Counted from the stretch's first letter, positions 31,717 through 48,848 are shown. The stretch: DNA of 64,000 bases from a phage (PZ347661.1); one strand, 5' to 3'. The notes: generated from the sequence alone by a model not told the origin. Program-made: numbers and translations.

Positions 31717-32469
31717 ATGTCCGAAGTAATTCCCAATGATATGAACACTCAGCTAATCCTGATTGCAGGATTCTCAGCGAGCGGTAAATCAGCATCACTG
31801 CGTAACATCCGGAACCAGGAACGCTGGCTCTATCTGAACACTGAAGCAGGTAAACGTCTGCCTTTCCGTAACAAATTCAATACCTACAACATCGAAGACC
31901 CATATCAGATTTGGGAAGCATTTGATGTTGCATCTCCTGGTGGAGAAATGGCAGATGATGTTGATGGTATCATCATTGACTCAGCAACCTTTATGATGGA
32001 TATGCTGGAATCCCAGTATGTATTGCCCTCTGCAAACACACAAAAGGCATGGGGTGATTTTGCACAGTTCTTTAAGATACTGCTGCAACAGAAAGTTGTT
32101 AAGTTTGGTAAGCCAGTAATCATTACTGCTCATGCTAAAGACGAACTGGATGAAGCTGCTGGTGTGATGAAAACATTCATCCCAGTGAAAGGTTCTCTTA
32201 AGAATAACGGGCTTGAAGCCTACTTCTCTACAGTGGTTTACGCAGAACGTGTAGACATTAAAGAACTGGAGAAGTATGGGAACAAGATGCTTGAAATTAC
32301 GGAAGAAGAACGTGACTTAGGGTATAAGCACGTATTCCAGACCCGTCCAACCAAGAAGTCAGTAGGTAAACGACTTCGTTCCCCAATGGGTATGTTTGAT
32401 AAGTCCGAGACTTATATCGACAATGATGCCCAGAAACTCTTAGACCACCTGGCTGAATACTACGCTTAA
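31717..32469 (+). CDS. P-loop ATPase (250 aa)
   Basis: Walker A GFSASGKSAS and Walker B-like IIIDSAT. Confidence 0.55.
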   Translation: MSEVIPNDMNTQLILIAGFSASGKSASLRNIRNQERWLYLNTEAGKRLPFRNKFNTYNIEDPYQIWEAFDVASPGGEMADDVDGIIIDSATFMMDMLESQYVLPSANTQKAWGDFAQFFKILLQQKVVKFGKPVIITAHAKDELDEAAGVMKTFIPVKGSLKNNGLEAYFSTVVYAERVDIKELEKYGNKMLEITEEERDLGYKHVFQTRPTKKSVGKRLRSPMGMFDKSETYIDNDAQKLLDHLAEYYA

Positions 32470-32508
32470 GCGTTTGTCTGGTTGTTAATCACTTATTAGG
32501 AAAATCAT

Positions 32509-33312
32509 ATGTCATTGTTCAGTAATCTGAAAGAAAAAACCAAAAACGTTGAAGCTGCTAAAGACTCCCTGGGTGGGGGTGGCTTCGGTGCAAAAGAAAC
32601 CGATATCTACACCGGTACTGTAAAAGTAGCTTACGTAGGCAAAGCTGACTCTGGTGCAGACTGGATGCAGTTAATCATTGAAGACCTGAAGAACTCTGAT
32701 GGCGTACCTGCTGGTGAGTTCCGTGCTCAGGTGTACTTCACTTCTGGTAATGCTAAAGGTAACAAGCCAACTTACGAGAAGAATGGCAAAGAATACTTCT
32801 TGCCTGGCTACACTGTCATTAACGACATGATGCTGATGGCTACCGGTACTGAACTGCCTGAAGCAGACTTCGAAGAGAAGATTGTTAAGGTCTATGACTT
32901 CGATGCTAAAGCAGAGGTTAATAAATCCGTCATGGTTCCAGTTGACCTGGTTGGTCAGACTGTTACCTTCGCTCTGGAAAAAGTTCTGGAATCTAAGCAG
33001 GTTAAAGGTGACAACGGCTACGTTGACTCCGGTGAAACTCGTGAAGTAAACGAGATCCAGAAAGTGTTTCATCCGGAACTGCTGGTCACAGTCGTCGAGG
33101 CTCAGGAAGCAGAGAAGGCTGAGAAAGAACTGACCCCAGAACTGGCTGTATTCTATGCAGCATGGCTGGAAAAGAACAAAGGCAAGACTCGTGATAAGAC
33201 CAAGGGTTCTGCTGGTGGTAATGGTAAAGGTGGCTTGCCTCCTAAACCAGGTGCAGGTGCTGGCACGGGTACTACTCCTGCTGGTGGTAAATCACTGTTC
33301 GGTAAACGTTAA
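32509..33312 (+). CDS. single-stranded DNA-binding protein candidate (N4 gp45-like, 267 aa)
   Basis: Size and position match the N4 SSB (recalled as ~265 aa); Gly/Pro-rich flexible C-terminal tail; inference. Confidence 0.5.
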   Translation: MSLFSNLKEKTKNVEAAKDSLGGGGFGAKETDIYTGTVKVAYVGKADSGADWMQLIIEDLKNSDGVPAGEFRAQVYFTSGNAKGNKPTYEKNGKEYFLPGYTVINDMMLMATGTELPEADFEEKIVKVYDFDAKAEVNKSVMVPVDLVGQTVTFALEKVLESKQVKGDNGYVDSGETREVNEIQKVFHPELLVTVVEAQEAEKAEKELTPELAVFYAAWLEKNKGKTRDKTKGSAGGNGKGGLPPKPGAGAGTGTTPAGGKSLFGKR

Positions 33313-33866
33313 TGAAAATCCCAATTGTTGGTGCAGACATTAGTCTCCGCAATTGGGGTTTAGCTCGTGGGATGCTGGACATTGAGTCCGGCGTCTTCGA
33401 GCAGGTCGAACTTAAACTGGTTCAAACTGAAGTTGACCACAACAAACAAGTTCGAACCAACTCCAAAGATATACAAGCCGCTCACGATTTGTTTCTTGGT
33501 TGTGAGGAATGGTTACGGTCTGCTAAAGCAGTATTCGTAGAAGTACCAGTAGGCTCTCAGTCTGCTAACGGTATGAAATCCTATGGAGTATGCGTAGGAT
33601 TAATCGGTGCATTTCGTGCATTGGGTTGTCCAATCTTTGAAGTATCCCCAATTGAAAACAAACTTGCACTGGTCGGTGATAAAACTGCATCTAAGGACAC
33701 GATGATTCGTGCTGCTCATGCCATTTATCCTGAAGCCAACTGGCTCACAGATAAGAAGGGCAAACTTCTGAATAAGAATGAGCACTTAGCAGATGCAATC
33801 GGTGCAATCCATGCTGGTGTAAATCTCCCAGCTTTCCAGAACCTCATTAAGTTATTAAAGGCGTAA
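33312..33866 (+). CDS. RuvC-like Holliday junction resolvase (184 aa)
   Basis: N-terminal VGADISL (catalytic Asp), FVEVP (Glu), C-terminal HLADAIGAIHAG resembling the RuvC HxxDAxxxA motif. Confidence 0.55.
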   Translation: MKIPIVGADISLRNWGLARGMLDIESGVFEQVELKLVQTEVDHNKQVRTNSKDIQAAHDLFLGCEEWLRSAKAVFVEVPVGSQSANGMKSYGVCVGLIGAFRALGCPIFEVSPIENKLALVGDKTASKDTMIRAAHAIYPEANWLTDKKGKLLNKNEHLADAIGAIHAGVNLPAFQNLIKLLKA

Positions 33867-34320: not shown

Positions 34321-34551
34321 TCTGGTAGGTGGCTCAGAAGCTGCTGCTATTTGTGGTAGTGTTCATAATTCTGATGCTATTGCTTATCAGGATTCTGGAC
34401 GTGTCGGCTCCATACATAGCATTTATCATCACTGTGCTTATACTTTGGAAACTCAGTGATAAAAACGGTGGTGACAAGCCGCCAGACTAACAACAACCGA
34501 ACCAGTGTGCAGGAATACTCTCCCCTGTGCATTGGTTCAACTGAGACTAAT

Positions 34552-34722
34552 ATGAACAAATTTACTATTCACTGGCTCAATGGAAAGGTTAGTTCTTTCA
34601 TGGGTGGAGAACCTGTTGAAGGAAAGAAAGCATTTCACATTGAATCAGAAGGCTGCAAAATCTTAATACCATACGCTTGGTATAAAGATGGTGAAGTAGA
34701 AGCATTAAAAAAGAGTAGTTAA
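34552..34722 (+). CDS. hypothetical small protein (56 aa)
   Basis: Internal ATG of track ORF 34456; weak RBS. Confidence 0.25.
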   Translation: MNKFTIHWLNGKVSSFMGGEPVEGKKAFHIESEGCKILIPYAWYKDGEVEALKKSS

Positions 34723-35144
34723 TATCGTGAAGGGTTCTGTTAGAATCCTTTGAGATAGGAACTCCTATCATAACCTTTCTTAACTTAATCTTTGCCGTAT
34801 GGCACTGACGCTAGGGGTGGCCCCCCATCCGTCAGGTAGACTATTTTAAGAATGGGTTATCACAGCAAATGTAAAGCAACATTCGGGTTAATCAATGGCC
34901 TCTCCCTATAGGGGCCATTTCTGAATCTTAGGCTATATCCCAAAGGTTAATATCTTTGGGATAAGGCTTCAGATCCCTTATCAACTAACCGCTCAATGTT
35001 GAGCATTTTAATCACATAAGCCCCTATATGGGCTGGGTTAAATGTCGGATAGCATAGCTACCTACAGCATCGAATTGTTAGGTCTTACATGCAAACTAAA
35101 TCATAGGGTAAAGAGGGACTCGTCCTCCCTCCCCTATTATAATG

Positions 35145-35214
35145 GTCGGGGTAGCGCGTAGGCATGTGCAGAAGGTCGCTACTTCTCTCGCTGGTTCGAA
35201 TCCAGCCCCCGACC
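35145..35214 (+). tRNA. tRNA-like element A (about 70 nt, isotype undetermined)
   Basis: 7-bp acceptor pairing GTCGGGG/CCCCGAC, U8-A9, T-arm GCTGG-TTCGAAT-CCAGC, possible anticodon stem AGAAG/CTTCT; hand fold leaves a short variable loop; no encoded CCA. Confidence 0.4.
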
Positions 35215-35765
35215 TACTGACATCCTATCAATGAGTACATTAGGCTAACGTGCGGAGGTTTACACTGTAGCCGGTGTAGGTGGAGAAGACGGCAGGATAG
35301 CTACCTGTGCTTAGTGTACTCTTTGATAGTTTTCGTAAGCGATTATGCGGTTTTTTAGAAACGAACCAATAACATAAATGCAAACGATGATGTTGTTCTG
35401 ATGGCGGCGTAATAGCCTATAAGTCAGCAAGGTCTTCCGATTCCTTGTAAACAAATTCGGCGCAGTGGCCCGCTGTGATTAATAATGGGCACACAACAGG
35501 TAAGAGCATTTAGGCTACTGAGAAATCATCCGAGGCAATCAGACCTATCTTCTGTTAAGTGCTCTTTCCGTTGTGGTGAATGTGCAGGCTGATGCGCAGT
35601 GGGACGTGGCTGACTCACGAGGATGGCTCAAGCGAATAAGCAAGCTCGACGCCGCCGAATAAGCGCCTTATGCCGGAGATCAGTACCGGCCACCACAACA
35701 AGTCCAGACGATATCTGAGTGACTATAAAAACAGATGGAGCCAGGTGGAATCCCTGGCAACTAAT

Positions 35766-35831
35766 TCCGGTGTAGGTACTAGTGTCGTGCACGGCATGAG
35801 TGTTCTGGTTCGAGTCCAGACGCCGGAACCA
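35766..35831 (+). tRNA. tRNA-like element B (only about 63 nt plus encoded CCA; non-canonical)
   Basis: Acceptor pairing TCCGGTG/CGCCGGA (one G-U), T-arm TCTGG-TTCGAGT-CCAGA, discriminator A and CCA encoded; too short for a standard D plus anticodon arm. Confidence 0.3.
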
Positions 35832-35833
35832 AT

Positions 35834-35957
35834 TACCAGTTGCACGAGATGGCTTGATATGTTCAAGTTTGGACTAAGTGTGACACCGCTAGATTGGAGA
35901 GCTGCTGCGGTAAGCTATAGACTCCAACCGGGGGTTCGAATCCCTCACTGGTAACCA
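35834..35957 (+). tRNA. tRNA-like element C (perfect 7-bp acceptor pairing spanning about 121 nt; possible insertion)
   Basis: TACCAGT at 35834 pairs with ACTGGTA at 35947; T-arm GGGGG-TTCGAAT-CCCTC; discriminator A and CCA encoded; internal length exceeds any standard tRNA. Confidence 0.3.
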
Positions 35958-36401
35958 ATTCAAAGTAGCATTGCACTAATCCATCCCGGAGTTCAAAGGC
36001 CAAACATGGAGCAGTGCTACTTTGAATTAGAAAGATTATGGGGGTAAGTCGTAACCATACGACGGCGTAAGTACCAGATGAGACTTCTGGACGCCCCTAC
36101 CAGATTTGGGGTGTAACAGTTAGATCCAGTTGCCGGAAGTGCTATTCTAGATACGCTGCCAATGTGTGAACGGTAAGGCTGTACAGGACTCGGACTCCCA
36201 CCTCAAACCAAAGTCGCCAGGTACTTATGGCAAACGGGTAGTAACGAACTAGTCATTCGTCAAACGCCCAACCTATTATGAGTCAGCAAGAACGCCTTCA
36301 CTTAAACTTAAACAAAAAAGCTTAACGCAATAATTATGTAGGGGTATGTAAGGATTGCGAAGAAGGAGCCAGTTAAAGTCTGGCATGGCTCAACCTATTA
36401 T

Positions 36402-36475
36402 GCCCACTTAGCTTAGACAGGGAAAGCAACCGACTAATAATCGGAAGGTCACTGGTTCAAATCCAGTAGTGGGTA
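36402..36475 (+). tRNA. tRNA candidate D (74 nt cloverleaf, anticodon uncertain)
   Basis: Acceptor GCCCACT/AGTGGGT (G-U first pair), D stem GCTT/AAGC, anticodon stem CCGA/TCGG with loop CTAATAA, T-arm ACTGG-TTCAAAT-CCAGT; the hand fold gives an unusual AAU anticodon. Confidence 0.45.
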
Positions 36476-36791
36476 CTTATTTGCTGCAATATTCCCATAG
36501 GGAATGGTGCCGTATACGCCACCTAGTTTCTGGTGAAACTCCAGATGCAGCAATCCATTCAGCAGTAACATAGTCCTGATTGCATTGCACTCTAAAGACA
36601 ACACTGGTAAGACAGTCCAGTGACTGCTAATGTACTGTTATTCCCCTCGACGGGAATTTCGCTAGTGAAGGTAACACTTAAAAATCCAAACCTACGTCTT
36701 ACTACTATCGGGCTATCAACCCACAGTCGCTTAACACACTAGTGGTAGTAGTTTGACGGCCTAGCCTCGTTAGCTGCGTTAAAGCTACTAA

Positions 36792-36817
36792 GTCCCTCTT
36801 CGGAGGGACTTTTTTAT
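36792..36817 (+). terminator. intrinsic terminator
   Basis: AGTCCCTC-TTCG-GAGGGACT followed by TTTTTT. Confidence 0.7.
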
Positions 36818-36986
36818 TTGAGTATTAATAAATGGATATTCAGGATGATTGACCTAATTTCTACTCCGTATGCCTATGAGGTAACGGATAACCGAGGACA
36901 TAAGTACTTGGTATTTGCAGGTAGCGTAGCCTATAACAACGCAGTAATGTTTAAGTACAAACTCAAACCACTCTATGAGGCTAATA

Positions 36987-37367
36987 ATGGCAACAGTAAG
37001 TAAAGAAGCAATCGAAGCTAAGATTAAGAGCATTTACTTTTTCAATGGTGCTGACGCAGTGAAGTCTGCATTCGTTGATCCATCTGCACTTCCAGCAGAT
37101 GATTTGGCTAACCTGGGTCTGACAACTCATTGCATTATCATCCTGGAAAATGGATTCAAAGTTGAAGGCGTATCCGCCTGCGTAGACCCGGCTATCTATG
37201 ATGAGCAAAAAGGTCGTCAGTATGCATATGAAAATGCATTCAATAAGATTTGGGAATTAGAAGGTTATCTGCTACGTCAGGCACTGCATGAGAAAGAAGA
37301 GACTGCTAAAGCTCTGGCTTCCTTTGCAGAAAACAATACCTGTGATGGTGGTGGTTGTACAATCTGA
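36987..37367 (+). CDS. hypothetical protein (126 aa)
   Basis: ATG with GAGG RBS. Confidence 0.5.
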   Translation: MATVSKEAIEAKIKSIYFFNGADAVKSAFVDPSALPADDLANLGLTTHCIIILENGFKVEGVSACVDPAIYDEQKGRQYAYENAFNKIWELEGYLLRQALHEKEETAKALASFAENNTCDGGGCTI

Positions 37368-37486: not shown

Positions 37487-37978
37487 ATGTCAGAAGAAAT
37501 TAAAGTCCATTTCACCAATTATATCGGAACCAAGTGTGTAAATGGTTTCCCGATGAACAAAGAAACATACTGCAAACTTCGTGGCTGGAATGTACCTGCT
37601 AAAGAAGACCCACTAGAAGAAGGTTATTTAGTCGAGTACCCAGACTCTAAGTCCAACCATCCTCAGTTCCGTGGCTATATTAGCTGGTCACCTAAAGCTG
37701 CATTCGAAGCTGCATACCATGACGTAGAAAAAGGTTGTACCTTTGGTCATACAGTAGAGCTTCTCAAATCAGGCTTCAGAATGACCCGTAAAGGTTGGAA
37801 CGGAAAAGGAATGTATATCACCTTAGTATCTGGTGAAAATTGGGCCATGGATAAACATGAAAATACCGTTTGTGAGAAACGGGATTGGCTGGGTATTAAA
37901 ACCGTTGATAACCAGTTTATGCCATGGGTTCCATCTCAATCAGATGTATTAGCAGAAGATTGGGTGTTAGCTCAGTAA
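37487..37978 (+). CDS. hypothetical protein (163 aa)
   Basis: ORF with GAGG RBS; last + strand gene before the strand switch. Confidence 0.55.
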   Translation: MSEEIKVHFTNYIGTKCVNGFPMNKETYCKLRGWNVPAKEDPLEEGYLVEYPDSKSNHPQFRGYISWSPKAAFEAAYHDVEKGCTFGHTVELLKSGFRMTRKGWNGKGMYITLVSGENWAMDKHENTVCEKRDWLGIKTVDNQFMPWVPSQSDVLAEDWVLAQ

Positions 37979-38012: not shown

Positions 38013-41000
38013 TTAGTTAGTGAGGTTGAGCCAAGGGTTCAGGTTATGAGCACGTAAGCCTTGACCGAAACCGAAGGAGTAACCAAGGTTGCCTTGTGCA
38101 GCAATGCTAAAGATGTTGTCCTGAATAGGCAGGCCAACGTTACCAAACATAGTAGGAGTTGGAGCCAGCATAGCCATAGCAGCATGTACAGGGTTGTTAC
38201 GAATCATGGACACTGCAACTTTTGCGGAACGAATCTTAAAGTTGTAGAACCACATAAGACCAACGCTTTCCATATAACCACGGAAGCGTCCTGGCAAACG
38301 GTCATAGTTAATGAACTCTTCCGTCACACGTCCAAGTGCTTCTTCACGGGTTTTACCTTTACGCTTAGTCAGTTCATCATAGATGATCGCTTTAGCAATA
38401 AAGTCAGAGTACTCAACCGTCTTCTGGATACCCTGGAAGAGAGCAGTATCCTTAGTGATAAGTGCATAACGACCTGCATTGCGTACAGACTTAGGCAGCT
38501 TATCAGCCAGCTTATCCATGTATTCGTGGAGTTTGCCCTCAGTAATCAGGATGTCATCACGTCCAATACCAGCATCTGCAATTGAGGAGAACTCACCTGC
38601 TTCTAGCAGAGGCCAGATACTCAAACGCTTATGACTATCCGTGATGGACTGAATCTCAGCTTTCAACTTACGAATCTGGTTCGGGTTAGTAGCTGCACGT
38701 AATTCTGCTTCTGCATCTACCTGACGTAAACGAGATTTCAGATACTGGTTAATCTCAGCAGTCTTCTGTGGAATGCTCTTAGCAATGTTCTTAACGGGTA
38801 CACCACGAGCAACCATCTGATAAAGGTTAGCCAGGAAGTTAACAGCAGGTACGACTACTGACTTAACTACAATCAGAGTCTTAGCTTCTTTAACTAAGTT
38901 TTGAACCAGGTTCTCACCACCCATTACATACTTGTAGGCACGGTTGCCGAATACACCCAACATAGCCTTCTTGAAGGTATCCAGCGTTTCTGGGGACCAA
39001 CGAGAATTACCAGACCAGGCATCACCAACGGAAGCTGCACGATAACCAAGAGCATCATTAAGCATGTCACGACGTACCCACAGCTCACCTGGGCCAAACA
39101 GACTTTCTGCTTTCTGACGTGTTTCACTGTTCATCAGTTTAAGAGCATCGGCAGTTACTGGGTCCAGTTTAGAACCAAGAAGGTTAACGTACTGAGACTT
39201 ATTAGAAGCAGACATCTTAATGTCGTTCTCATACATGCTATACAGATTCTCAATTAGCATATCGTTGAAACGCTGGGCCTTGGCCTCTTCTACCTGACGA
39301 CCACGCCATACACCAATTGCACGAGCAAGATGGTTCTCACCCTCAATGTGCTTCAGCATGTTAGGGTCAATGGATTGCTCATAAGCAACCACATTACCAT
39401 TGGCATCATATACAGGCAGAAGTGGTTCATTACCTCGTTCACCACGAGCCAGTGCTTTGGTGATACGGTCCACGGAAGGCTTGTCAGTAATACGACCTGC
39501 TACCATGGTTCCCATCGTAAAGCCTGTACCAAGGTCTACACCACCAGCAGTATTACGAACGTTCTGTAAGATACCCTGTGAGAATGGAGCCTGTGACTGT
39601 ACTGGTGCAAAGTAGTAGCTACGTGCTGGACCACGATTAGCAGAGCTACCCTGATAAGTACCCAGACGTACATAAGACTTCTCAATCAAATCAGCAAATT
39701 GATTATCTTCAGCAACAATCAGGTTAACACCTTGTTTGTTCTCACCAGGGATATACCCTTTGTACTGGTTCAAGGTTGCACGCGAATCAGACTTGGCTTT
39801 AGCCATTTCATCCTTACGTTGACCAACCAGGTAAGAAGTAGCAAAGTCCATACCTTCAATTTCTGTCTGAGCCAGTAAAGATAACATCTCACGGTCAGAT
39901 TTATTCATTGCTTCCAGTGCATACAGGGTAATGAGTTTATCCAGTTGAGCTACATCAACAACAGAGCGTGTAGTCTTACGCTCACCCAGCAAGCGTGAAA
40001 TTGCAGTAGCATTACGCAACAAGTTATTTCCGACTGTACCATTAATCATGTACTGAGCCAGTTGCTTAGATTTACGGCTAATCAGATGCCAGTTACGTCC
40101 TGCTTGTTTCTGCAAATCTGCTTCCAGTTTATTAACCTCACGGTCAACAATCTTCTGGTCAGACAACAGGTCACGAATTTCAGCCAGAGACATAGTGTCA
40201 CGCAGGACAGCTAAGTCAGTTTTACCCATACCGGTATGCATTGCTTTCCACTCAACATTAGTCAGCTTACGGCTGAACTTAGATGCGATAGTGGTAGGCA
40301 GGTGTTCACGGAACTGTTGACGGTCAGCCTGTACCTGTGCACGTACTGCTTTAATCAAATCATATACAGAAGCATTACTCTTAGTACGACCGATTATGTC
40401 ATTAACCAGGTCATGGAACGGTTGCCATACTTTACCCTGGTTCATTGCAGCCATAACACCTTCAGCTACGATTGAACCATTCTTCTCTGTAGCAATAGCA
40501 GCTACCAGTTGTGCAGCATGAGCAGCACCTTTAACCAATGGGTTCTTGGTATTAGCTGCAACTTCACGAGCACCTTCCAAAGCACGGGTAGACAGTACAT
40601 CAATAGAATCCACCAGATACTGGTTAGCACGGTCAATAGCATTACCGGTAGGAGTAGCAACGGAATCATAGAAGGACTCTGCATTAAGACTGGTCTGCAT
40701 AATTGTCTGAGCTAGTGCATCCATACCTTCTTGTACGTTAGTGGCTTTAGTATCGCCTGCTACACGGGCATTCAGACTAGCCATTGCAGCAGTACCGATG
40801 TTAGTCAGCATTGCATCAACAGTATTGCCTGACTTCTTATCTGCTTTCATAACAGGAATATCAGCCAGTACTTTACGTACCTCTTCACTTACCATTGCCA
40901 GACCAACAAAGGTAGGCAGCAAGGAAGAACGACCCTGTGCATCAAACTCAATGTTGTTAGCACCCATGATGGTATCGAACTTCTGCTGTGCATAGTAACG

Positions 41001-44000
41001 GTCAGCAGGGTTAGTACTATCTGGGTCAGCCATGAACGATTCAACAGTTAGGTTCTTAGTAACGTGTGTGTAGTATTCCTGTGCACGAGCCATGGCAGCT
41101 GGGTTAATAGCAGCCTCGGTAGCCAGTGCAGCAACAATGTTAGTGAAGAGACGCTGTTCCTGCATATTCATGGTGAAGCCATGAGCCTGAACATCACGAG
41201 TTACTTTAGTTGCATTCACTACTGCATCAGAGAACTTACCTTTACGAATTACTTGCTGTACTGGTTCTGAACCAATGTAGTCAGTAATCAGTTTATCGAA
41301 GGTTTTTCCTAACTCTTCCAGACGAGTATTGTTACCGTATGCTTTGTTATGGAACAGGGTAGTGTCCTTAGCTACAGCAGCAGTAGGAGCCTGTCCACGC
41401 ATAACTACAGCAGAGTTAAACAGTAAGCCAGAGAACATATCATCTGCATTAGACGGAGCTTTCTTACGTCCAAATACCAGGCGTTTGATTGCTTCATATA
41501 CAGCCTGAGCCATAGCTTTAAGTGCAGTGGTTTTCTTCTGCTTACCAATCAGTTCACGGTTAGTTAAGCCCCAAGCCATGTACTCATTCAATGCAGCAGC
41601 TTTAGCCATTGCTGGTTCAATGAAGCCATTGGACAAGTGACCATTAATGGTATTCAGTGCATCAGCATATGCTTCACGTACTACCGGAGATTCATCCTTA
41701 ACATCCAGAGTACGGAATTGGTTCATCAGGTCTTCAATATTCTGGACAGCTTCATTAGGAGTACCCTCATAGTGAGCCAGTACAGATTCAAAAGTAGAGG
41801 CATGTACTAATTCATGAACCAGAGTCTCTAAGGAAGGGGTAACTAAGTAGATGGTCTTATCTTCAAAGTTAGTCCAGCCATATGCATTACCAGCTTCAGC
41901 AGCTTCAATATCTTCCGGTGCAGGGCGAGTAATATTCTTCTCAATAGCGTAGGCATCCAGTTGAGAAGGTGTACCGTAAACAACCTTATAGTCTTTAGCA
42001 GCAAGAGATTTCTGTATTTCTTTCAATACTGCTTGCTGTTCAGGAGACATCTCTTTAGCCAGCTTAGTGATAGCAGTATTAGACAGCAGACGTACACCAG
42101 ACTTCAGTACACGACCTACCTTCTCCATAGCTGGTACAACTTTCACCGGCACTTCCTTCACTGGTTCTGCCTTCGTTGGTTCCGCTTTAGCAGCACGTAC
42201 TGCTTCACGACGCTTGTTTAGTTCAGCATCAAACAGCTCGTTCAGCTTAGCTACTTGCTGGTCTACAGTCAGACCTTCCAGAGAGATTTTACCGTTGTTC
42301 ACATAAGGAGCACCTACAGCAGCCATCTGGTCAACAGTGACCTGTACCTGGTCCATTACCTTGTGACGAATATCTACACCCAAAGCAATGTTACGCAGGT
42401 TACGCTCAATCAGTGCAATACCAGAATCTCTAATCATAGAAATTTTATAATCTCTATCACCATCTACTCTGGCAATATGAGCACGTTGCTCAAAGTCTAA
42501 AGCAGACTTTGCAATAGCATCTATTGCTGAATCGGACAGCTTATTTAAATCAACATTCTTAACAAACTTAGAGAAAGACTCATATACATTCTTGATAGGG
42601 TTACCCTGCCAGGAAGTATATACAGCCTCATTAGCTTTACGGCTTGCATCAGTAATGTCATTAATACCAATGTTCATACCATCAAAGATTTTCAGGGTAT
42701 TCTTCGGAGCACCTTTCATAGTAGAAAGAGTCTGCATCATCATGCCATCACCAGTACCGATGGTCATAAATGGAATACCTGCAACACCTGCTTGCGAAGG
42801 AGCATAGATGCTCATTGGCACACGCATACGGTCATCTAAGTTGGTGGCCAGTACTTGGTTAGCAACATCAGTGTTTTCACTACCAGCAATGTAGAAAGTC
42901 TGTGAGCCAGTCTTAATCATTGGAGCCAGTGGTGCTAAGCTATTCTGGATTTCATTCAGTTCTTTCTGTGTTAAGAAATCGCCTTTTTTCCATGTTGGGT
43001 CTTTTTCTTTTTCTGCCAGCTTAGCCTGTACTGCCTGTTGGAACATATCCTGCAATACCAGAGATTGTATCTGAGTAGCCTTCTGCAAGTTCTCAGTAGA
43101 GTGCATCAACCCTTCACCAACAGTAAATCGGATACCTTGTCTCATTGGCTCAACAAAGAAATGCAGCATATTCTCTTGTAAGTTCTTCAGAGCATCCCCG
43201 GATACGGTAAACTCCTGAGGATTTAACTCACCAGTCAGAACACCATCTACTTCCTTAATAAATAACCTACCTTTGCGTTTGGCTGGAATCTTGCCAGTCA
43301 ATGCTTCCATAGAAGTAAGGAAGGTATCCAGCATAGCCTGAGCATCAGCTTCAGAAGCAGCCTCCTTACCAAACATCGCCATAGCTGGGGAAATGCTAGG
43401 GTCAGCAGCACGGGCTTTTAGAACGTCGCTTAAGCGTTCATAGATGGCGTCAGTAATTGCACTTACCATCTTGCCTGCAATACCGCGAGCACCAGAACCA
43501 TAAATGGTAATAGTCAGTGGGTTTTTAGCGATACCACGCTTCAGGTCCAGAGTACCATCTTCATTAAGATTGAAGTCTTTGATGAACAGGTCCATTAACT
43601 TCTGGAGATGGTCCATCTGATTTATAATAGGAATATTTTTGCTGTAAGTATTGCGTAGTTCATTCAGATGGAATTGCAGACTATTGGTAGATGCTTCATA
43701 CAGGTCAACATTATCATCCTGAGTATGATGCTCATTCATAGTCTTACCGGCTTTACCGAAGAACAAACCACCTTTAGCAGTATTCTTAATCCAGTTTGGG
43801 GTGAACTTACCACCAGTCATTAATACCATTGCGTTGATTGGCCCGTTGGTTACACCATCGGCTTCAACGTACAGTGGGGTATTAAAGTTGGCTCGGTCAT
43901 CACTGTTAAGGTAACGGGCATATTCCATAAGAGCCATGAGAGCTACAAATGATTTATCATTACCCAGAGATGTTCTCAGGATATCCACTGCGTCAGCAGG

Positions 44001-47000
44001 CAAGTATCCAGACTTATCAAACTCAACCATCATATCTACAGCAGGCTTCAGTTTACCTTCCAGAGCCTTGGTAAGTTCTTCTGACATAGTTTCACGAGTC
44101 ATTTTATGAACTTTGATACCCAATGCCTGAGCCAGACCTAACTGGAAGCCAGAGAAGTCTTCATTGTTTTGGTTCGATAAATCCAGAGTAGCTTTAGTAG
44201 GTAAGATAGCCTCACGAACCAGCTTAGCTGATTGAGGATTGTATTTGCCCAACATCTGCATACGACCAACACGGGTCATATTGTAAGCATAGTGAATAGG
44301 TACAGAAGAAATGTCTTCACTCTGTGCTCTCACCTGTTCAATAACAGAGAACAGTTGGTTGTAAGAATCTTCTACAGAACGATTCTTACCTTCCAGAGAT
44401 TTAGCATGGTTCTTATTAAGTAAATCCTTATCCAGAGTACCTGCACCCATCAGTTCAAGGATACGGTCTTTACCTAATGCTTCATAGAACTGAACCATTG
44501 GAGTATGTACAAAGAACTCAGTAGCCTGTTCTGCTTTAAGAGCAGCTTTCTGTTCTGGAGTATTACGGACAGCAGGGTTACGTAACTGAGTAGGAGCCAC
44601 TGAAGGAATATCATCACCCAGGTACAATTTCTCTTCTGGTTCTACGAGGACAGCTTCCTCGATAGCAGTAGGGAATTTGTTAATGGCATCGTTATCATCC
44701 AGTTTCTCAATGGTATACAGACCAATAGTCTTATTAGATTCTGGGTCAATTTCAGACACATCAAGCATAGACTCTTTAACTTCACCCATCTCAATGAGAG
44801 AAGACAGAATCTCTGTAGCCATTGCCATTGGAATACCTTTGGTATAACCCAATGGTGCATCAGCATTACGATTAAGTCCCCAATAAGATTCAATCTTTTG
44901 AGCCAGTGAGTTAGTAGCTTCTACTAAGGTTTGTGCATTCTCAAATTCTGCGAGGATGCCCTCTGGTAACAAGGAAGCATTTACACCAGTAATTGCAGCC
45001 ACATCCTGCATGTCTTTAATAGCAGCATTCTGTGTAGCAGTAAGTCGCCATTGCAGACCAGCAAGTACAGCAGTCTCTAATAACTGGTCATTGAACTTAA
45101 AGGTATCACCATCTTTCTCTACGATGTTAAGCAGTTTGCCACCTACCCAACGGTTAGCCTCAGTACCCTCTGCAAAACGTTTACCAACATTCTTGTTAGC
45201 AAGGAACTTAGCCAGACGATCAGACAGAGTAGTCTTCAGAGTTTCACCAAAATCAAATAAGTCCTGGTAACGCTTAATCACATCACTTGTGAGAGCGTTA
45301 TTTTCTCTTTGAGTGAATGCTTCAAAACGAGCAGCAGAAGACAATGCTTTCTTAACATCAGTCAAAGGAGATTCAGAACCAATGGTACGAGACTTAGGTT
45401 CTTCTGGAAGAGAAAATGCTTTAAGGAACTGGTTCGGTGTCTTGTCGTTGTTATAGACAGGGAACACTGTTTCTATTCCCGATAGAGGTTTACCGCCAAC
45501 GGTATAGTCTGCTTTCAGTTGAGCCAGTGATACTTCTTCCTTCTCGACGTTATTGGTATTAAGCCCAGATGTATCTACACCAATCTGAATCAGTGCATTG
45601 TTTGCTTCTACGAATGATTGAACAGTATTAAATTGTTCCGGGGTCAGCTTCTGGTTATCAAACAGTTGCAAAGATACAAATGGTTGTTCACTACCTTTGT
45701 AGAAGGTAGAGCGAATAGCACCAGTATCTAAAGACATATCACGATAACCATCATGACCAAATACATCAGACAGACTGATATGGTCACCATTAGAACCAAC
45801 AACAGTACCATCAGCAAAGAGCCATGGACTTTCCCTACGGTCACCATACTTATTAAGAGTATCTTGTGAAATAGTATTCTCTTTCACATAAGAATCTCTT
45901 TCAGATTCAGTAGGCTGTTCAACGGTATCCTGTTTTTCAGACTGGTTCTCAGGTTCTTTTACAGTCTGTGGTTTAGACTCTTTATTAGTAGGTTCTGTTT
46001 TAACAGCTTCACTAACAGAGGGTTTAGTCTGTACAGTAGGGGTAACTGGTTCCTGTTTCGTAACAGGAGTTTCATCAACCTGATTCACTGGTTCATTGGT
46101 CTGTTGGGATTGAGCAGCATCAAGATTGCCCTGACGGAACTCTTTAACTACCTGGGCAGCAGGCTTGTCCAGACGTGAATCCAATGGGGTAACTTTCACA
46201 TGAGAAACATTAAGCTCCGGGTAAGCCGTAGCAAGTGCGTTAGCAATATCAGCTACGGTCTTGGCTTCCAGTCCTACTTGCTGGGCAAACTTAACAGACT
46301 TGGTATCATACGGATTGACACCGAGGCCAGTACGACTACGTACCCATTCACGCGAGGGAGTAAGAGCCTGATAATGGACAGACTTATTCTTATCCGCATT
46401 CCCAGAAATCAGATGCTCATTCAACGCTCCGACCTTATTCTGCATGTGCTGGGCGAACTTCATAAAGTCGTCGAGATAAGCGGAAGCCAAATCGAAGTTA
46501 CCAGAGTTGTACGCAGAACGAATGCGTTTAGCATGTTGCAACGCAGAGTACTGGCCTTCATTAGAACGAGATTCGTCGGTTTTAATTTGTTTACTAACAA
46601 TGTCTTGAGGACGTAAGCCTAGTTCTTCTGCTTTAGCGTCAAATTCTCGTGCTCCTTGCAATAGAGCAGCAGCAGATTGCAGGGCAGCACGCTGACGATT
46701 CCCCAGTGTAATCTTACCTTCACTCGCATGTTTCAGAACCATGTTCACTGAATCTGCATCCAGTACTTCTGGAGACACATCAGCAGCCATAGCAATATTG
46801 TTTGCCTGGGCTTGGTTAGCTTCTTCAGTAGCTTTCAGTTTACCTGCTTCAGCCTGTTCCTGAATCATGGAATGAATGGCACGGAATGCACGGAGTACTT
46901 TCGGTGTATTCTGAACATTAGCCATCAGGCCGGAGAACTGGTCAACGATATTAGCAGCAGGAGAACCCTGTTCCAGATTAGCTAATGCACCTGGGTCACG

Positions 47001-48848
47001 GTTAATGAAGCTATCCATAGACATGATGTTGTCATACATCTGGATTGCAGCTTCCATTTGAACGTTAGGGTCTTCAGCAGTATTAACCAGGTCAGCCATC
47101 TTCTGAATAGCTTCAACACGGTTAGTGGAACCAGAAACAGCTTCACGGATTGCAGGACTAGCTTGTTCCAGTTCTACTGGGTCAAACTTCATTGCCTGAG
47201 TTAAGTCAGCAGCATACTGAGTAGCAGCAGCTTTCTCTTCAGGAGAAATATCCATTGCATCTACTGCTTCCTGAACAGTTGCTTGTGCTTGTTCTGCCTG
47301 AGCAGTAGCTTCCTGTGCAGCAGCGTTAACTGTAGCATCTGATACAGGGGATGCTTGTTCATTACGCTTAGCAACTTCTTCTCCACGTTGAACCAGAATG
47401 TTAGTAATAGGTGAAGCTACTTTTGCTAATGCCTTACCAGCCAGAGAAGCACCAGCCAAGGTAGTACGTACAGCAGGACCAACGGCAGCACCAGCAGCCT
47501 TAACAGTTGCACCAGGAGCTTGAGCAACTCCAGCAGAACCGAAGCCGTACAGTGCACCCAGACCTGCTTGCTCACCAACACCTTTGAGGATGTCACGAGA
47601 TGCATCAACATTACCTTGGATTGCCTTGTTCTGTGCAAACTGACTTGTACCAGACTGGATACCTTCTTCTACAGTCTCACGCAGCATGTTGGAACCAGCA
47701 CCAGCCAGTGAACCTACCTTAAGTGGATTAAGTTCAAACTTGGATACCAATGGAGCAGTAAGAGCAGCAACTGGAGCAGTTAAACCAGCAGCAGTGATAC
47801 CTGTTTCAGATGCAGTCTGACGTCGTGCCTCTTCAGGAGTTAAGCCGTCTTTAATGTGTTGTTGGTATACAGGAGATTTAGCAGCCAGTTCACTGAATGG
47901 CATTTCCATAATTTCATTGGCAGTCTGTTGATATGCACCACCAGCTTCCATACCACCAATTGCTATAGCAGGTGCAGCAATACGACCAGCAGTCTGTGCA
48001 ATCCGTGCAGGACGTGAACCTAACTCAGCAGCTAAGGTAATACCCTTAACAGCTTTGTCCCCACCTACCATTACTTTACCAAGTGCGGATACACCACGGA
48101 TAAGTGGACCACCAGTGAAGAGAGAACCAACGCCTTCAGCCAGACCATCTGTAGCAGCCATGCCATTGGACAAGGTATTAGCAACAGAATCATAAGCATC
48201 CCGACCAATTCGAGACAGAGAAGCAACGAGTTCACTTTCTCCTTTAGCAATATCCTGCTTATAGAGTTTCTCATTTTCCTGTGCAGATATTACGTTCTGG
48301 TTCTGTACTACATTACGACGAGCATTCAGTGCATCAGACTGTAGGTTGTGTACACCTTTATTCAACCAGTCAAGACCGGAAGCAATGGATGCCCCGGCAT
48401 TATCATTGACCAAGCCTGTGCCAAGAGCAGCAATGCCCCCAAGGGTATTAGCAACACCAAGACCAACACCAGAAAGGGTATCACCAAGTGCTTCACCATA
48501 TGTGCGACTCTTAGTTAAATCACGACGAACAGCATTAGCTGCATTGACACGAGCATTGAGAATGTCCATTCCTTGCTCATTGCCATACTTGTTTACGATT
48601 TCAAGAGGGGAGGCATTAGTAAAATCTGCCTGAATAGAACCTGGGTCAAATGCACCAGCACCTAAGTCACCGGCACGTCCTGCCTGTAATTGGTAAGCGT
48701 TCTGAGAAGTTAATTGGAAAGGGTTTTGCCCTTGTTCAGCTTGTTTCCGAGAGGTTGCAGTAGAGACATCGACTTGCTTAGCAGTAGTGATGCTGTCTGC
48801 GAAACCTGCCAGACGGTCAAATGTTGACATAGCATGATTCCTGTTCAA
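38013..48848 (-). CDS. virion-encapsidated RNA polymerase (N4 gp50-like vRNAP, 3611 aa)
   Basis: Single giant ORF at the late-region position where N4 encodes its ~3500-aa vRNAP; internal KNPLTITIYGSGARG resembles motif B of T7-like single-subunit RNAPs. Confidence 0.85.
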   Translation of the reverse strand: MNRNHAMSTFDRLAGFADSITTAKQVDVSTATSRKQAEQGQNPFQLTSQNAYQLQAGRAGDLGAGAFDPGSIQADFTNASPLEIVNKYGNEQGMDILNARVNAANAVRRDLTKSRTYGEALGDTLSGVGLGVANTLGGIAALGTGLVNDNAGASIASGLDWLNKGVHNLQSDALNARRNVVQNQNVISAQENEKLYKQDIAKGESELVASLSRIGRDAYDSVANTLSNGMAATDGLAEGVGSLFTGGPLIRGVSALGKVMVGGDKAVKGITLAAELGSRPARIAQTAGRIAAPAIAIGGMEAGGAYQQTANEIMEMPFSELAAKSPVYQQHIKDGLTPEEARRQTASETGITAAGLTAPVAALTAPLVSKFELNPLKVGSLAGAGSNMLRETVEEGIQSGTSQFAQNKAIQGNVDASRDILKGVGEQAGLGALYGFGSAGVAQAPGATVKAAGAAVGPAVRTTLAGASLAGKALAKVASPITNILVQRGEEVAKRNEQASPVSDATVNAAAQEATAQAEQAQATVQEAVDAMDISPEEKAAATQYAADLTQAMKFDPVELEQASPAIREAVSGSTNRVEAIQKMADLVNTAEDPNVQMEAAIQMYDNIMSMDSFINRDPGALANLEQGSPAANIVDQFSGLMANVQNTPKVLRAFRAIHSMIQEQAEAGKLKATEEANQAQANNIAMAADVSPEVLDADSVNMVLKHASEGKITLGNRQRAALQSAAALLQGAREFDAKAEELGLRPQDIVSKQIKTDESRSNEGQYSALQHAKRIRSAYNSGNFDLASAYLDDFMKFAQHMQNKVGALNEHLISGNADKNKSVHYQALTPSREWVRSRTGLGVNPYDTKSVKFAQQVGLEAKTVADIANALATAYPELNVSHVKVTPLDSRLDKPAAQVVKEFRQGNLDAAQSQQTNEPVNQVDETPVTKQEPVTPTVQTKPSVSEAVKTEPTNKESKPQTVKEPENQSEKQDTVEQPTESERDSYVKENTISQDTLNKYGDRRESPWLFADGTVVGSNGDHISLSDVFGHDGYRDMSLDTGAIRSTFYKGSEQPFVSLQLFDNQKLTPEQFNTVQSFVEANNALIQIGVDTSGLNTNNVEKEEVSLAQLKADYTVGGKPLSGIETVFPVYNNDKTPNQFLKAFSLPEEPKSRTIGSESPLTDVKKALSSAARFEAFTQRENNALTSDVIKRYQDLFDFGETLKTTLSDRLAKFLANKNVGKRFAEGTEANRWVGGKLLNIVEKDGDTFKFNDQLLETAVLAGLQWRLTATQNAAIKDMQDVAAITGVNASLLPEGILAEFENAQTLVEATNSLAQKIESYWGLNRNADAPLGYTKGIPMAMATEILSSLIEMGEVKESMLDVSEIDPESNKTIGLYTIEKLDDNDAINKFPTAIEEAVLVEPEEKLYLGDDIPSVAPTQLRNPAVRNTPEQKAALKAEQATEFFVHTPMVQFYEALGKDRILELMGAGTLDKDLLNKNHAKSLEGKNRSVEDSYNQLFSVIEQVRAQSEDISSVPIHYAYNMTRVGRMQMLGKYNPQSAKLVREAILPTKATLDLSNQNNEDFSGFQLGLAQALGIKVHKMTRETMSEELTKALEGKLKPAVDMMVEFDKSGYLPADAVDILRTSLGNDKSFVALMALMEYARYLNSDDRANFNTPLYVEADGVTNGPINAMVLMTGGKFTPNWIKNTAKGGLFFGKAGKTMNEHHTQDDNVDLYEASTNSLQFHLNELRNTYSKNIPIINQMDHLQKLMDLFIKDFNLNEDGTLDLKRGIAKNPLTITIYGSGARGIAGKMVSAITDAIYERLSDVLKARAADPSISPAMAMFGKEAASEADAQAMLDTFLTSMEALTGKIPAKRKGRLFIKEVDGVLTGELNPQEFTVSGDALKNLQENMLHFFVEPMRQGIRFTVGEGLMHSTENLQKATQIQSLVLQDMFQQAVQAKLAEKEKDPTWKKGDFLTQKELNEIQNSLAPLAPMIKTGSQTFYIAGSENTDVANQVLATNLDDRMRVPMSIYAPSQAGVAGIPFMTIGTGDGMMMQTLSTMKGAPKNTLKIFDGMNIGINDITDASRKANEAVYTSWQGNPIKNVYESFSKFVKNVDLNKLSDSAIDAIAKSALDFEQRAHIARVDGDRDYKISMIRDSGIALIERNLRNIALGVDIRHKVMDQVQVTVDQMAAVGAPYVNNGKISLEGLTVDQQVAKLNELFDAELNKRREAVRAAKAEPTKAEPVKEVPVKVVPAMEKVGRVLKSGVRLLSNTAITKLAKEMSPEQQAVLKEIQKSLAAKDYKVVYGTPSQLDAYAIEKNITRPAPEDIEAAEAGNAYGWTNFEDKTIYLVTPSLETLVHELVHASTFESVLAHYEGTPNEAVQNIEDLMNQFRTLDVKDESPVVREAYADALNTINGHLSNGFIEPAMAKAAALNEYMAWGLTNRELIGKQKKTTALKAMAQAVYEAIKRLVFGRKKAPSNADDMFSGLLFNSAVVMRGQAPTAAVAKDTTLFHNKAYGNNTRLEELGKTFDKLITDYIGSEPVQQVIRKGKFSDAVVNATKVTRDVQAHGFTMNMQEQRLFTNIVAALATEAAINPAAMARAQEYYTHVTKNLTVESFMADPDSTNPADRYYAQQKFDTIMGANNIEFDAQGRSSLLPTFVGLAMVSEEVRKVLADIPVMKADKKSGNTVDAMLTNIGTAAMASLNARVAGDTKATNVQEGMDALAQTIMQTSLNAESFYDSVATPTGNAIDRANQYLVDSIDVLSTRALEGAREVAANTKNPLVKGAAHAAQLVAAIATEKNGSIVAEGVMAAMNQGKVWQPFHDLVNDIIGRTKSNASVYDLIKAVRAQVQADRQQFREHLPTTIASKFSRKLTNVEWKAMHTGMGKTDLAVLRDTMSLAEIRDLLSDQKIVDREVNKLEADLQKQAGRNWHLISRKSKQLAQYMINGTVGNNLLRNATAISRLLGERKTTRSVVDVAQLDKLITLYALEAMNKSDREMLSLLAQTEIEGMDFATSYLVGQRKDEMAKAKSDSRATLNQYKGYIPGENKQGVNLIVAEDNQFADLIEKSYVRLGTYQGSSANRGPARSYYFAPVQSQAPFSQGILQNVRNTAGGVDLGTGFTMGTMVAGRITDKPSVDRITKALARGERGNEPLLPVYDANGNVVAYEQSIDPNMLKHIEGENHLARAIGVWRGRQVEEAKAQRFNDMLIENLYSMYENDIKMSASNKSQYVNLLGSKLDPVTADALKLMNSETRQKAESLFGPGELWVRRDMLNDALGYRAASVGDAWSGNSRWSPETLDTFKKAMLGVFGNRAYKYVMGGENLVQNLVKEAKTLIVVKSVVVPAVNFLANLYQMVARGVPVKNIAKSIPQKTAEINQYLKSRLRQVDAEAELRAATNPNQIRKLKAEIQSITDSHKRLSIWPLLEAGEFSSIADAGIGRDDILITEGKLHEYMDKLADKLPKSVRNAGRYALITKDTALFQGIQKTVEYSDFIAKAIIYDELTKRKGKTREEALGRVTEEFINYDRLPGRFRGYMESVGLMWFYNFKIRSAKVAVSMIRNNPVHAAMAMLAPTPTMFGNVGLPIQDNIFSIAAQGNLGYSFGFGQGLRAHNLNPWLNLTN

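Follow-up and report, generated by a model that had tools for sequence, protein, structure and literature searches.

What does a long hairpin do that begins on the very last nucleotide of a tRNA-like RNA? The question is raised by a locus in a 64,000-nucleotide stretch of phage DNA (PZ347661.1, hereafter the window), in which the first-pass annotation had noticed an imperfect inverted repeat at 35957-36028. Both the repeat finder and RNAfold bear it out: on the + strand a 5′ arm, AATTCAAAGTAGCATTGC (35957-35974), pairs with a 3′ arm, GCAGTGCTACTTTGAATT (36011-36028), over 18 bp with 94% complementarity, the sole non-Watson-Crick position being a T·G that becomes G·U in + strand RNA. This is the element first seen, although its inner arm ends had been placed slightly off, at 35976 and 36013. 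It had also been described as lying directly after a CCA, which is correct to the point that the terminal A of the CCA (35955-35957) is itself the first base of the stem; counted with one CC/G pair the duplex reaches 19 bp. The arms are 36 nt apart (35975-36010, from the fold), and the ~70-nt stem-loop stands as proposed, but not its simple ~35-nt loop: the interior consists of a 5-nt internal loop, ACTAA (35975-35979), a 5-bp upper stem (35980-35984/36006-36010) and an apical loop of 21 nt (35985-36005) that holds CCCGGAGTTCAAAG at 35985-35998. We refer to the whole element as the stalk.

The stem is AU-rich. The predicted folding energy of 35950-36035 is -29.5 kcal/mol, against -14.4 +/- 2.7 in 200 dinucleotide shuffles (z = -5.6), none of which was as stable as the real sequence, and the stalk folds as an independent domain alongside its neighbours. 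A scan for inverted repeats with 18-nt arms, at most one mismatch and a spacer of 3-80 nt returned it as the only one of its quality in the 64-kb window, with none in 20 first-order Markov shuffles.

The window comes from a G7C/Bp4-type N4-like coliphage (Gamaleyavirus, Enquatrovirinae, Schitoviridae). Over 2.3 kb around the stalk it is 88-97% identical to N4-like coliphages of the G7C/Bp4/ECBP1 type, and the 301 nt centred on the stalk are 99% identical to Bp4, ECBP1 and PD38; a 3611-aa ORF on the minus strand (38013-48848) is annotated in relatives as the virion RNA polymerase. The stalk lies on the middle-gene strand inside a stretch of ~2.1 kb (~34730-36810) that has no credible ORFs, is flanked by gp47 and gp48 homologues and is ended by a strong intrinsic terminator at 36790-36811 (terminator scan). 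ARAGORN finds only two tRNAs there, tRNA-Ala(cgc) at 35144-35215 and tRNA-Ile(aat) at 36402-36476, and Rfam at gathering thresholds only the tRNA-Ile. Genome papers on relatives list a few tRNAs in this gap or state none; that on EC1-UPM, an N4-like relative, states that there are no tRNA genes (PMC3853248). The homologues of N4 gp48 and gp49 that follow the array (36975-37367 and 37487-37978, + strand) carry the label 'anti-CRISPR protein' in some automated annotations of relatives and are hypothetical or DUF2829 in others. The tRNA-Ala(cgc) is probably not a working alanine tRNA, to judge from its positions 3, 70 and 37: it has U3-A70 and not the alanine identity pair G3·U70, a pyrimidine at position 37 and no encoded CCA; it falls below the Rfam tRNA thresholds and scores 31 bits against tRNA-Sec.

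The gap as a whole (34730-36810) is a mosaic array of structured RNA modules, several of which (B, C and D) are minimal tRNA-like RNAs with an encoded CCA. Modules have been gained, lost and reordered among otherwise near-identical phages, and their junctions lie at RACCAAT(T/A). A (C)TATTAT leader stands immediately before the G that starts each module, including the tRNA-Ile (36402); the leader motif, CCTATTATG, is confined to the array, not a promoter motif found across the genome. Module B (66 nt, 35766-35831, + strand, ending GCCGGAACCA) has an N4 copy that gives a weak tRNA-Sec-like match, and module D (63 nt, 36040-36102, + strand, ending ACCA) was recognized by sequence reading and local hairpin folds; D has an acceptor GGGGGT/ACGCCCCT, one hairpin and a T-arm-like hairpin CCAGA-TGAGACT-TCTGG. 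Between the stalk and the +1 G of module D, sequence comparison delimits a linker, AGAAAGATTAT (36029-36039, + strand). Many tRNA-like genes near the stalk are degenerate.

The RNA on whose CCA the stalk begins is module C (124 nt, 35834-35957, + strand, from a consensus fold). It has an acceptor TACCAGT/ACTGGTA, two long arms, a T arm GGGGGTTCGAATCCCTC, a discriminator A and an encoded CCA. Its acceptor and T stems contain five compensatory pairs (RNAalifold, 10 distinct homologues), it is kept in Klebsiella phages of the KP8 type, and the acceptor TACCAGT/ACTGGTA of Escherichia phages corresponds to TACTGGT/ACCAGTA in Klebsiella phages. Neither ARAGORN nor Rfam calls module C a tRNA. It is nonetheless a genuine tRNA-shaped RNA, and the CCA end of a tRNA-like element that had been assumed upstream of the repeat is real.

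To place the stalk we compared 24 annotated relatives and four IMG/VR contigs that proved to be true homologues (4 of 22 matches to the 5′ arm). It is present in 29 loci with 23 distinct sequences (Gamaleyavirus, Kaypoctavirus), at the same position in every relative read, including the KP8-type phages and N4. An IMG/VR scan with the linker sequence AATTGGAAGAATTA gave random AT-rich matches, with the stalk in 0 of 120 loci among the matches listed. In all loci except pSb-1 the stalk starts at the A of a ...RACCA end; in pSb-1 the upstream modules are deleted and the stalk follows a T-arm module. Most loci have module C on the upstream side, but PE007, 24-32N and others have module B there, phi G17 a module X and Jgk1 another tRNA-like RNA; N4, the KP8-type phages and several Gamaleyaviruses have a stalk directly 3′ of module B. 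On the downstream side at least four alternative neighbours occur, module D being one of them, but the linker is kept (consensus GRAAGAATTAT, then the G of the next module; GAAGATTTAC in N4), so that stalk and linker behave as a unit between CCA-ended RNA genes.

The helix itself is longer in most relatives than in the window. There a GG after the 3′ arm pairs with the CC of the CCA, so that the helix extends to CCAATT/AATTGG and measures 20 bp including CC/GG; it reaches 24 bp in KP8 and 27 bp in N4. KP8-type phages have the whole ACCA within the helix (ACCAUU/GAUGGU) and possess two stalks, one after module C (AAAAGAGYACTG/CAGTGCTCTTTT) and a second after module B (CCAATTCGAGGTAGTGCTRTATGG/CCATGTAGTACTACCCCGAATTGG). 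The N4 stalk after module B (CCAATTCGTAAGAACTCTTATTTTGGTT/AACCAGAGTAAGAGTTCTTTCGAATTG; 27 bp, z = -8.3) has the helix base CCAATTC/GAATTG and the linker in common with the window; its upper stem is wholly different, yet paired. The comparison indicates that the element in the window is the local copy of a conserved helix of ~20 bp (27 bp in N4).

Two kinds of comparison bear on whether the pairing itself has been kept. The first is covariation, whose absence in relatives the first-pass annotation had named as the observation that would speak against the element; it is present and strong. In a set of 21 distinct sequences, 90.6% of the arm cells form standard pairs, with double changes at 7 of 20 pairs. 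With 22 sequences, a set that takes in the N4 and KP8 post-B copies, pairing stands at 91.1% and double changes at 11 of 20 pairs (31 such cells); none of 500 shuffles of this set reaches the observed value, and registers that were slid out of phase are 21-45% paired. The second is the distribution of change between the arms. The first 14 nt of the 5′ arm are invariant in all Gamaleyavirus copies but PhAPEC5, and the 3′ arm is more variable. In PhAPEC5 two changes in the 5′ arm (AATTAGAAG) restore two pairs with an altered 3′ arm (CCCCTAATT). The conservation should be read with some caution, since most Gamaleyaviruses are closely related and part of it reflects shared ancestry. At stem pair 9, 17 of 22 sequences lack a canonical pair (A·C in Gamaleya- and Kaypoctaviruses, U·U in N4), and the window, with A-U, is in the minority. 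These patterns show that the stalk helix exists and is selected for pairing, on RNA or on single-stranded DNA; of the roles first offered for the repeat, namely processing signal, structured RNA or protein-binding site, what covariation upholds is the conserved structure. As to the strand, there are 24 G·U cells on the + strand together with many A·C mismatches, which on the - strand become G·U, and RNA of the + strand folds better in 17 of 26 copies; this leans slightly to +, while the wobble statistics favour neither strand.

What the helix encloses is far less constant. At least six mutually unrelated interior classes occur among the relatives on the conserved stem: class A is the window's own, B and C are two small hairpins, D is a degenerate cloverleaf (T arm GTAAGGTTCGAATCCTTAC) with an extra hairpin, E is an unrelated insert and F is the KP8 type. 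Classes A-C have the motif YCCCGGNNTTYAAAG in common, and small hairpins that covary (TCC/GGA, AAATG/CATTT, ATAC/GTAT); in classes D-F and in N4 the class A interior is replaced by unrelated sequence. The N4 interior is a three-hairpin cloverleaf with the T arm TTAGGTTCGAATCCTAA, and both cloverleaf heads, of N4 and of class D, have a GGTTCGAATCC T arm on the + strand and sit on a stalk of 17-27 bp. Since the T arm of the N4 head directly abuts the 3′ strand of the stalk, the N4 stalk amounts to an extended acceptor stem. All interior heads, those of class D and N4 included, are below every Rfam and ARAGORN threshold. Taken together, the alignments show a stalk that is fixed in position relative to CCA ends around an interior that varies and can be dispensed with. 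In appearance this interior is a decayed tRNA once enclosed by a leader-trailer helix, and the simplest history would be that the enclosed tRNA body decayed or was replaced while the helix was kept under selection.

The stalk is not the only such stem in the array. A second one, with 21-nt arms around a 63-nt interior (35225-35329, + strand; repeat finder, z = -2.9), begins 10 nt after the tRNA-Ala(cgc)-like gene (35144-35215), and its copy in phi G17 is formed by a different paired sequence, GGGGAGTG.../...CACTCCCC. A third element, found by folding, has an 8-bp closing stem around three hairpins (36481-36553, + strand; z = -4.0) and lies 5 nt after the tRNA-Ile (36402-36476). In N4, tRNA-Thr and tRNA-Pro each have a long stem that begins immediately behind their CCA (18+5 bp with z = -6.1 and 13 bp with z = -3.4, respectively), and tRNA-Asn, -Ser and -Thr, which are 4-5 nt apart, have none in between. 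As the stems that follow tRNA genes are mutually unrelated in sequence, they are not copies of a mobile repeat. Long helices abutting CCA ends are thus seen to recur in the array as a feature under selection. The corresponding N4 gap (32112-33632 of NC_008720; 2113-3633 in our extract of that locus) spans 1.5 kb in which the reference record annotates nothing; it contains tRNA-Asn, -Ser, -Thr and -Pro, module B and three post-CCA stalks.

The same array holds, at 35312-35695, an unannotated tmRNA-like RNA with the 3′ end ...CCGGCCACCA and an ACCA at 35692-35695. An E-value scan with Rfam gave a permuted tmRNA match at 35309-35412 that is sub-threshold (31 bits, gathering threshold 47). A frame without a start codon (35380-35412; GCA AAC GAT GAT GTT GTT CTG ATG GCG GCG TAA) encodes ANDDVVLMAA*; the tag of E. 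coli tmRNA is ANDENYALAA. In 24 related loci the tag is kept with conservative replacements and reads ANDDVVLMAA, ANDDVILMAA, ANDDVVLMVA, ANEEAYLMVA or ANNETYLMVA, and its last codons change synonymously (GCGGCG/GCAGCC/GCTGCT). By blastn the tag module recurs, always unannotated, in 335 phage records from unrelated families, among them siphoviruses, Ackermannviridae, the lambdoid HK633 and a Moazamivirus; in the four records read, the tag is ANDDVVLMAA in a Salmonella siphovirus, ANDSEVLMAA in a Kuttervirus, ANDNAFRVAA in the Moazamivirus, and ANEEMYLAVA in HK633, where it lies between PR'/qut and the holin gene. Stalks occur after the tag RNA too: the CCA of its short form in phi G17 directly abuts the stalk described here, and that of its long form in the Salmonella siphovirus is followed by a different one. 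ARAGORN makes no tmRNA call for the tag RNA at default settings; a permuted call appears only at lowered thresholds, which yield many false calls, and no canonical tRNA-like domain was recognized in it. The frame and its distribution indicate that the tag RNA is tmRNA-like and widespread in enterobacterial phages.

Next to it lies a further conserved module (35700-35765; also at 1199-1260 of the phi G17 locus) with a T-arm-like hairpin CCAGG-TGGAATC-CCTGG. A module of this type is present in N4, which has no tag. Behind the phi G17 module comes CAGCTTCC-TAACAG-GGGAGTG, aligned by Rfam as a permuted tmRNA acceptor with G3·U70; this assignment is doubtful, as the putative 5′ strand also belongs to a much stronger local hairpin. 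We discarded the idea that a permuted tmRNA gene has the stalk as its intervening segment, since the 5′ strand of the module C acceptor lies upstream of the stalk.

Several familiar identities for the stalk were considered and set aside. ARAGORN and Rfam make no tRNA or tmRNA call at 35957-36028, and scans with Rfam at gathering and E-value thresholds (window, class D relative and N4) match no family to the stalk. YrlA (RF02553) gives no match at E <= 10 to the stalk element of the window, of class D or of N4; the one sub-threshold YrlA match in N4 is located on tRNA-Ser. Self-cleaving ribozymes (HDV-like, hatchet, hammerhead, twister, pistol) give none up to E = 10 across 34400-37200. An intrinsic terminator was rejected (AU-rich stem, 36-nt interior, tail AGAAAGATTATG, and no place in the scan that lists 36790-36811), as was a mobile palindromic repeat of the REP/MITE kind, the stalk being single-copy in the window. 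It has no match in 5,426 complete E. coli genomes, which were searched for a host origin. Two ORFs overlap the region, 35670-35954 (+) and 35863-36003 (-), and have no PHROG match; a protein-coding reading of the stalk was rejected, with module swaps and indels in relatives breaking the ORFs. The hairpin promoters that the N4 virion RNA polymerase uses have a 5-7-bp stem, a 3-nt loop and conserved bases and lie at the left genome end (PMC4496689), and a promoter of this type was rejected for the stalk with its 18-bp stem, 36-nt interior and location in the middle-gene region. The literature searched on N4-like tRNA-like RNAs, middle promoters, RNA-seq and Schitoviridae tmRNA yielded neither a description of these elements nor transcript or cleavage data for these phages, and the ONT-cappable-seq paper on LUZ7, a phage of a different genus, has nothing on them.

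The reading that we prefer, with a probability of roughly 0.4, is that the stalk serves as an RNA processing or insulator stem, probably as an RNase III substrate, in a polycistronic array of tRNA-like RNAs. It always abuts a CCA end, with the next tRNA-like gene ~11 nt further on, and this placement would fit such a role. We envisage that the array is transcribed on the + strand as a polycistronic precursor ending at the terminator (36790-36811). Closely spaced tRNAs would release each other by RNase P cuts; at the end of a run of CCA-ended RNAs the long duplex would most probably offer a double-strand cut of the RNase III type, or alternatively could act as a structural stop that positions a cut between CCA and AUU. 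After the cut, host 3′ exonucleases would trim to CCA, and RNase P would trim the downstream neighbour after the conserved ...TTAT leader, at the G. Stable duplexes block RNase II and PNPase. Since a duplex of 18-27 bp on the CCA would block the 3′ exonucleases by which tRNA ends are finished, maturation of the upstream RNA should need an endonucleolytic cut at or in the stalk. RNase III of E. coli cuts duplexes some two helical turns long and has T7 early RNA and the leader-trailer stems of rRNA among its substrates; given this substrate preference it is the obvious candidate, especially for the versions of 24-27 bp. Set against the two helical turns of an RNase III site, the window offers 18 bp and a 5-bp upper stem, and its duplex of 18-19 bp is at the lower end for this enzyme. 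The fixed mismatch could set the position of cleavage, like the internal loops in T7 sites.

Two features go beyond a pure duplex model. The near-invariant 5′ arm hints at a sequence-specific role, and the motif YCCCGGNNTTYAAAG common to classes A-C is not predicted if the interior is dispensable. In a bolder reading, which we consider rather unlikely, the stalk would be a dedicated, hitherto undescribed component of a phage 'translation-hijack' RNA array, made up of minimal tRNA-like RNAs with encoded CCA and a tmRNA-like tag template. Here the stalk would mask the CCA in a duplex and decide whether, or at what time, the CCA-ended RNAs beside it are set free, with a specific nuclease or phage protein recognizing the invariant 5′ arm together with the fixed mismatch. 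If true, it would represent a new class of RNA maturation switch and not a generic RNase III site.

The explanations that compete with a processing stem differ in what they take the helix to be for. It is possible, though unlikely, that stalk and interior form a stable small RNA, a long helix with a tRNA-like or other variable head that would act in the infected cell as decoy, sponge or protein tether, with an architecture comparable to YrlA or to tRNA-operon spacers such as 3'ETS-leuZ. The cloverleaf heads of N4 and class D, with a canonical T arm on a stalk of 17-27 bp, speak for it, as do the common loop motif and covarying small hairpins of classes A-C; RNase P cleavage at the next module would free the stalk with a short tail, and the rapid turnover of heads could mean diversifying selection. 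Yet six unrelated interior classes, some of them two tiny hairpins, imply no common functional head, neither YrlA nor another family matches even in small search spaces, and the YrlA stalk takes the place of the anticodon arm, unlike the present one, which prolongs the acceptor stem. The resemblance of the interiors to tRNA remnants at various stages of decay, the extreme mosaicism of the array and the degeneracy of many neighbouring tRNA-like genes would also suit a functionless relic, a decayed tRNA gene with inverted leader and trailer kept by phage relatedness alone. We regard this as less plausible still: double changes keep the stem in three genera with completely different upper stems, PhAPEC5 has compensated its 5′ arm change, and a neutral perfect duplex of 18-27 bp on a CCA should decay, or be disfavoured as a hindrance to 3′ maturation.

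The absence of a strand preference in the wobble statistics would also suit an element acting as DNA, whether as a cruciform or single-stranded hairpin for protein binding, as a replication or recombination signal, or as a junction for cassette exchange. The arm boundaries do coincide with alignment breakpoints between relatives (query positions 144-146, 199 and 209-215), the module ends RACCAAT(T/A) may provide microhomology for recombination, and the 5′ arm is conserved in sequence. However, G·T and A·C are mismatches in DNA and are tolerated or even fixed here, the heads bear tRNA features of the + strand, stems of unrelated sequence after other tRNA genes point to a logic at the transcript level, and the hairpin promoters of N4 are far smaller (5-7 bp stems, 3-nt loops; PMC4496689); a DNA-level role is in our view improbable. 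Least credible is a pause or terminator at which phage RNA polymerase II or the host RNA polymerase would form the 3′ end of the tRNA-like RNA. A stable hairpin right after a mature 3′ end does recall many tRNA and ssrA operon ends, but the stem is AU-rich and is followed by AGAAAGAUUAUG and no U tract, the terminator scan passes over it and reports the strong terminator at 36790-36811 instead, and more co-oriented RNA genes lie downstream, the nearest after 11 nt.

If the stalks are processing sites, as we prefer to think, they would explain how CCA-ended RNAs mature from transcripts of a T7-like polymerase, and they could be used as handles for engineering RNA expression from phages that are candidates for therapy. 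N4 is a classical model phage, and its gp47-gp48 gap of 1.5-2.2 kb, regarded as empty or as holding 'a few tRNAs', is now seen as a dense, modular array of structured RNA genes. The presence of a tag template in hundreds of unrelated enterobacterial phages in turn makes phage interference with ribosome rescue directly testable.

Processing or insulator helices between the genes of tRNA operons are already known as a kind, and the stalk would be a variant of it. With RNase III stems, such as T7 R1.1 and the 16S/23S leader-trailer stems, it has in common a long duplex between RNAs in a polycistronic transcript, a conserved stem around variable sequence and a fixed non-canonical position in the helix; moreover, the N4 and class D stalks surround a body resembling an RNA gene, as the rRNA leader-trailer stems do. 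The likeness is one of architecture, known here from sequence and predicted fold, and in contrast to known RNase III sites the stalk starts exactly on a CCA end, with a duplex in the window of only 18-19 bp. The E. coli spacers 3'ETS-leuZ and ITS-metZW are likewise non-tRNA precursor segments right after a CCA with a possible role of their own, but they use single-stranded seed pairing with sRNAs, whereas the conserved part of the stalk is a duplex. Phage T4 encodes unexplained structured RNAs in its tRNA cluster (species 1 and 2, or RNA C and D) that are co-transcribed and processed with the tRNAs; from their description as discrete CCA-ended molecules they are nearer to modules B, C and D than to the stalk. 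YrlA, which also occurs in enterobacteria and phages, resembles the N4 and class D stalks in its long terminal helix with a tRNA-like domain bearing a T arm, but no covariance-model match links the two, the stalk joins at the acceptor and not at the anticodon position, and the window's copy lacks a tRNA-like head. By analogy, the functionally closest systems would be the RNase III stems of T7 early RNA and of rRNA operons together with the functional spacers of tRNA operons, while architecturally the N4 and class D versions recall Y RNAs of the YrlA type.
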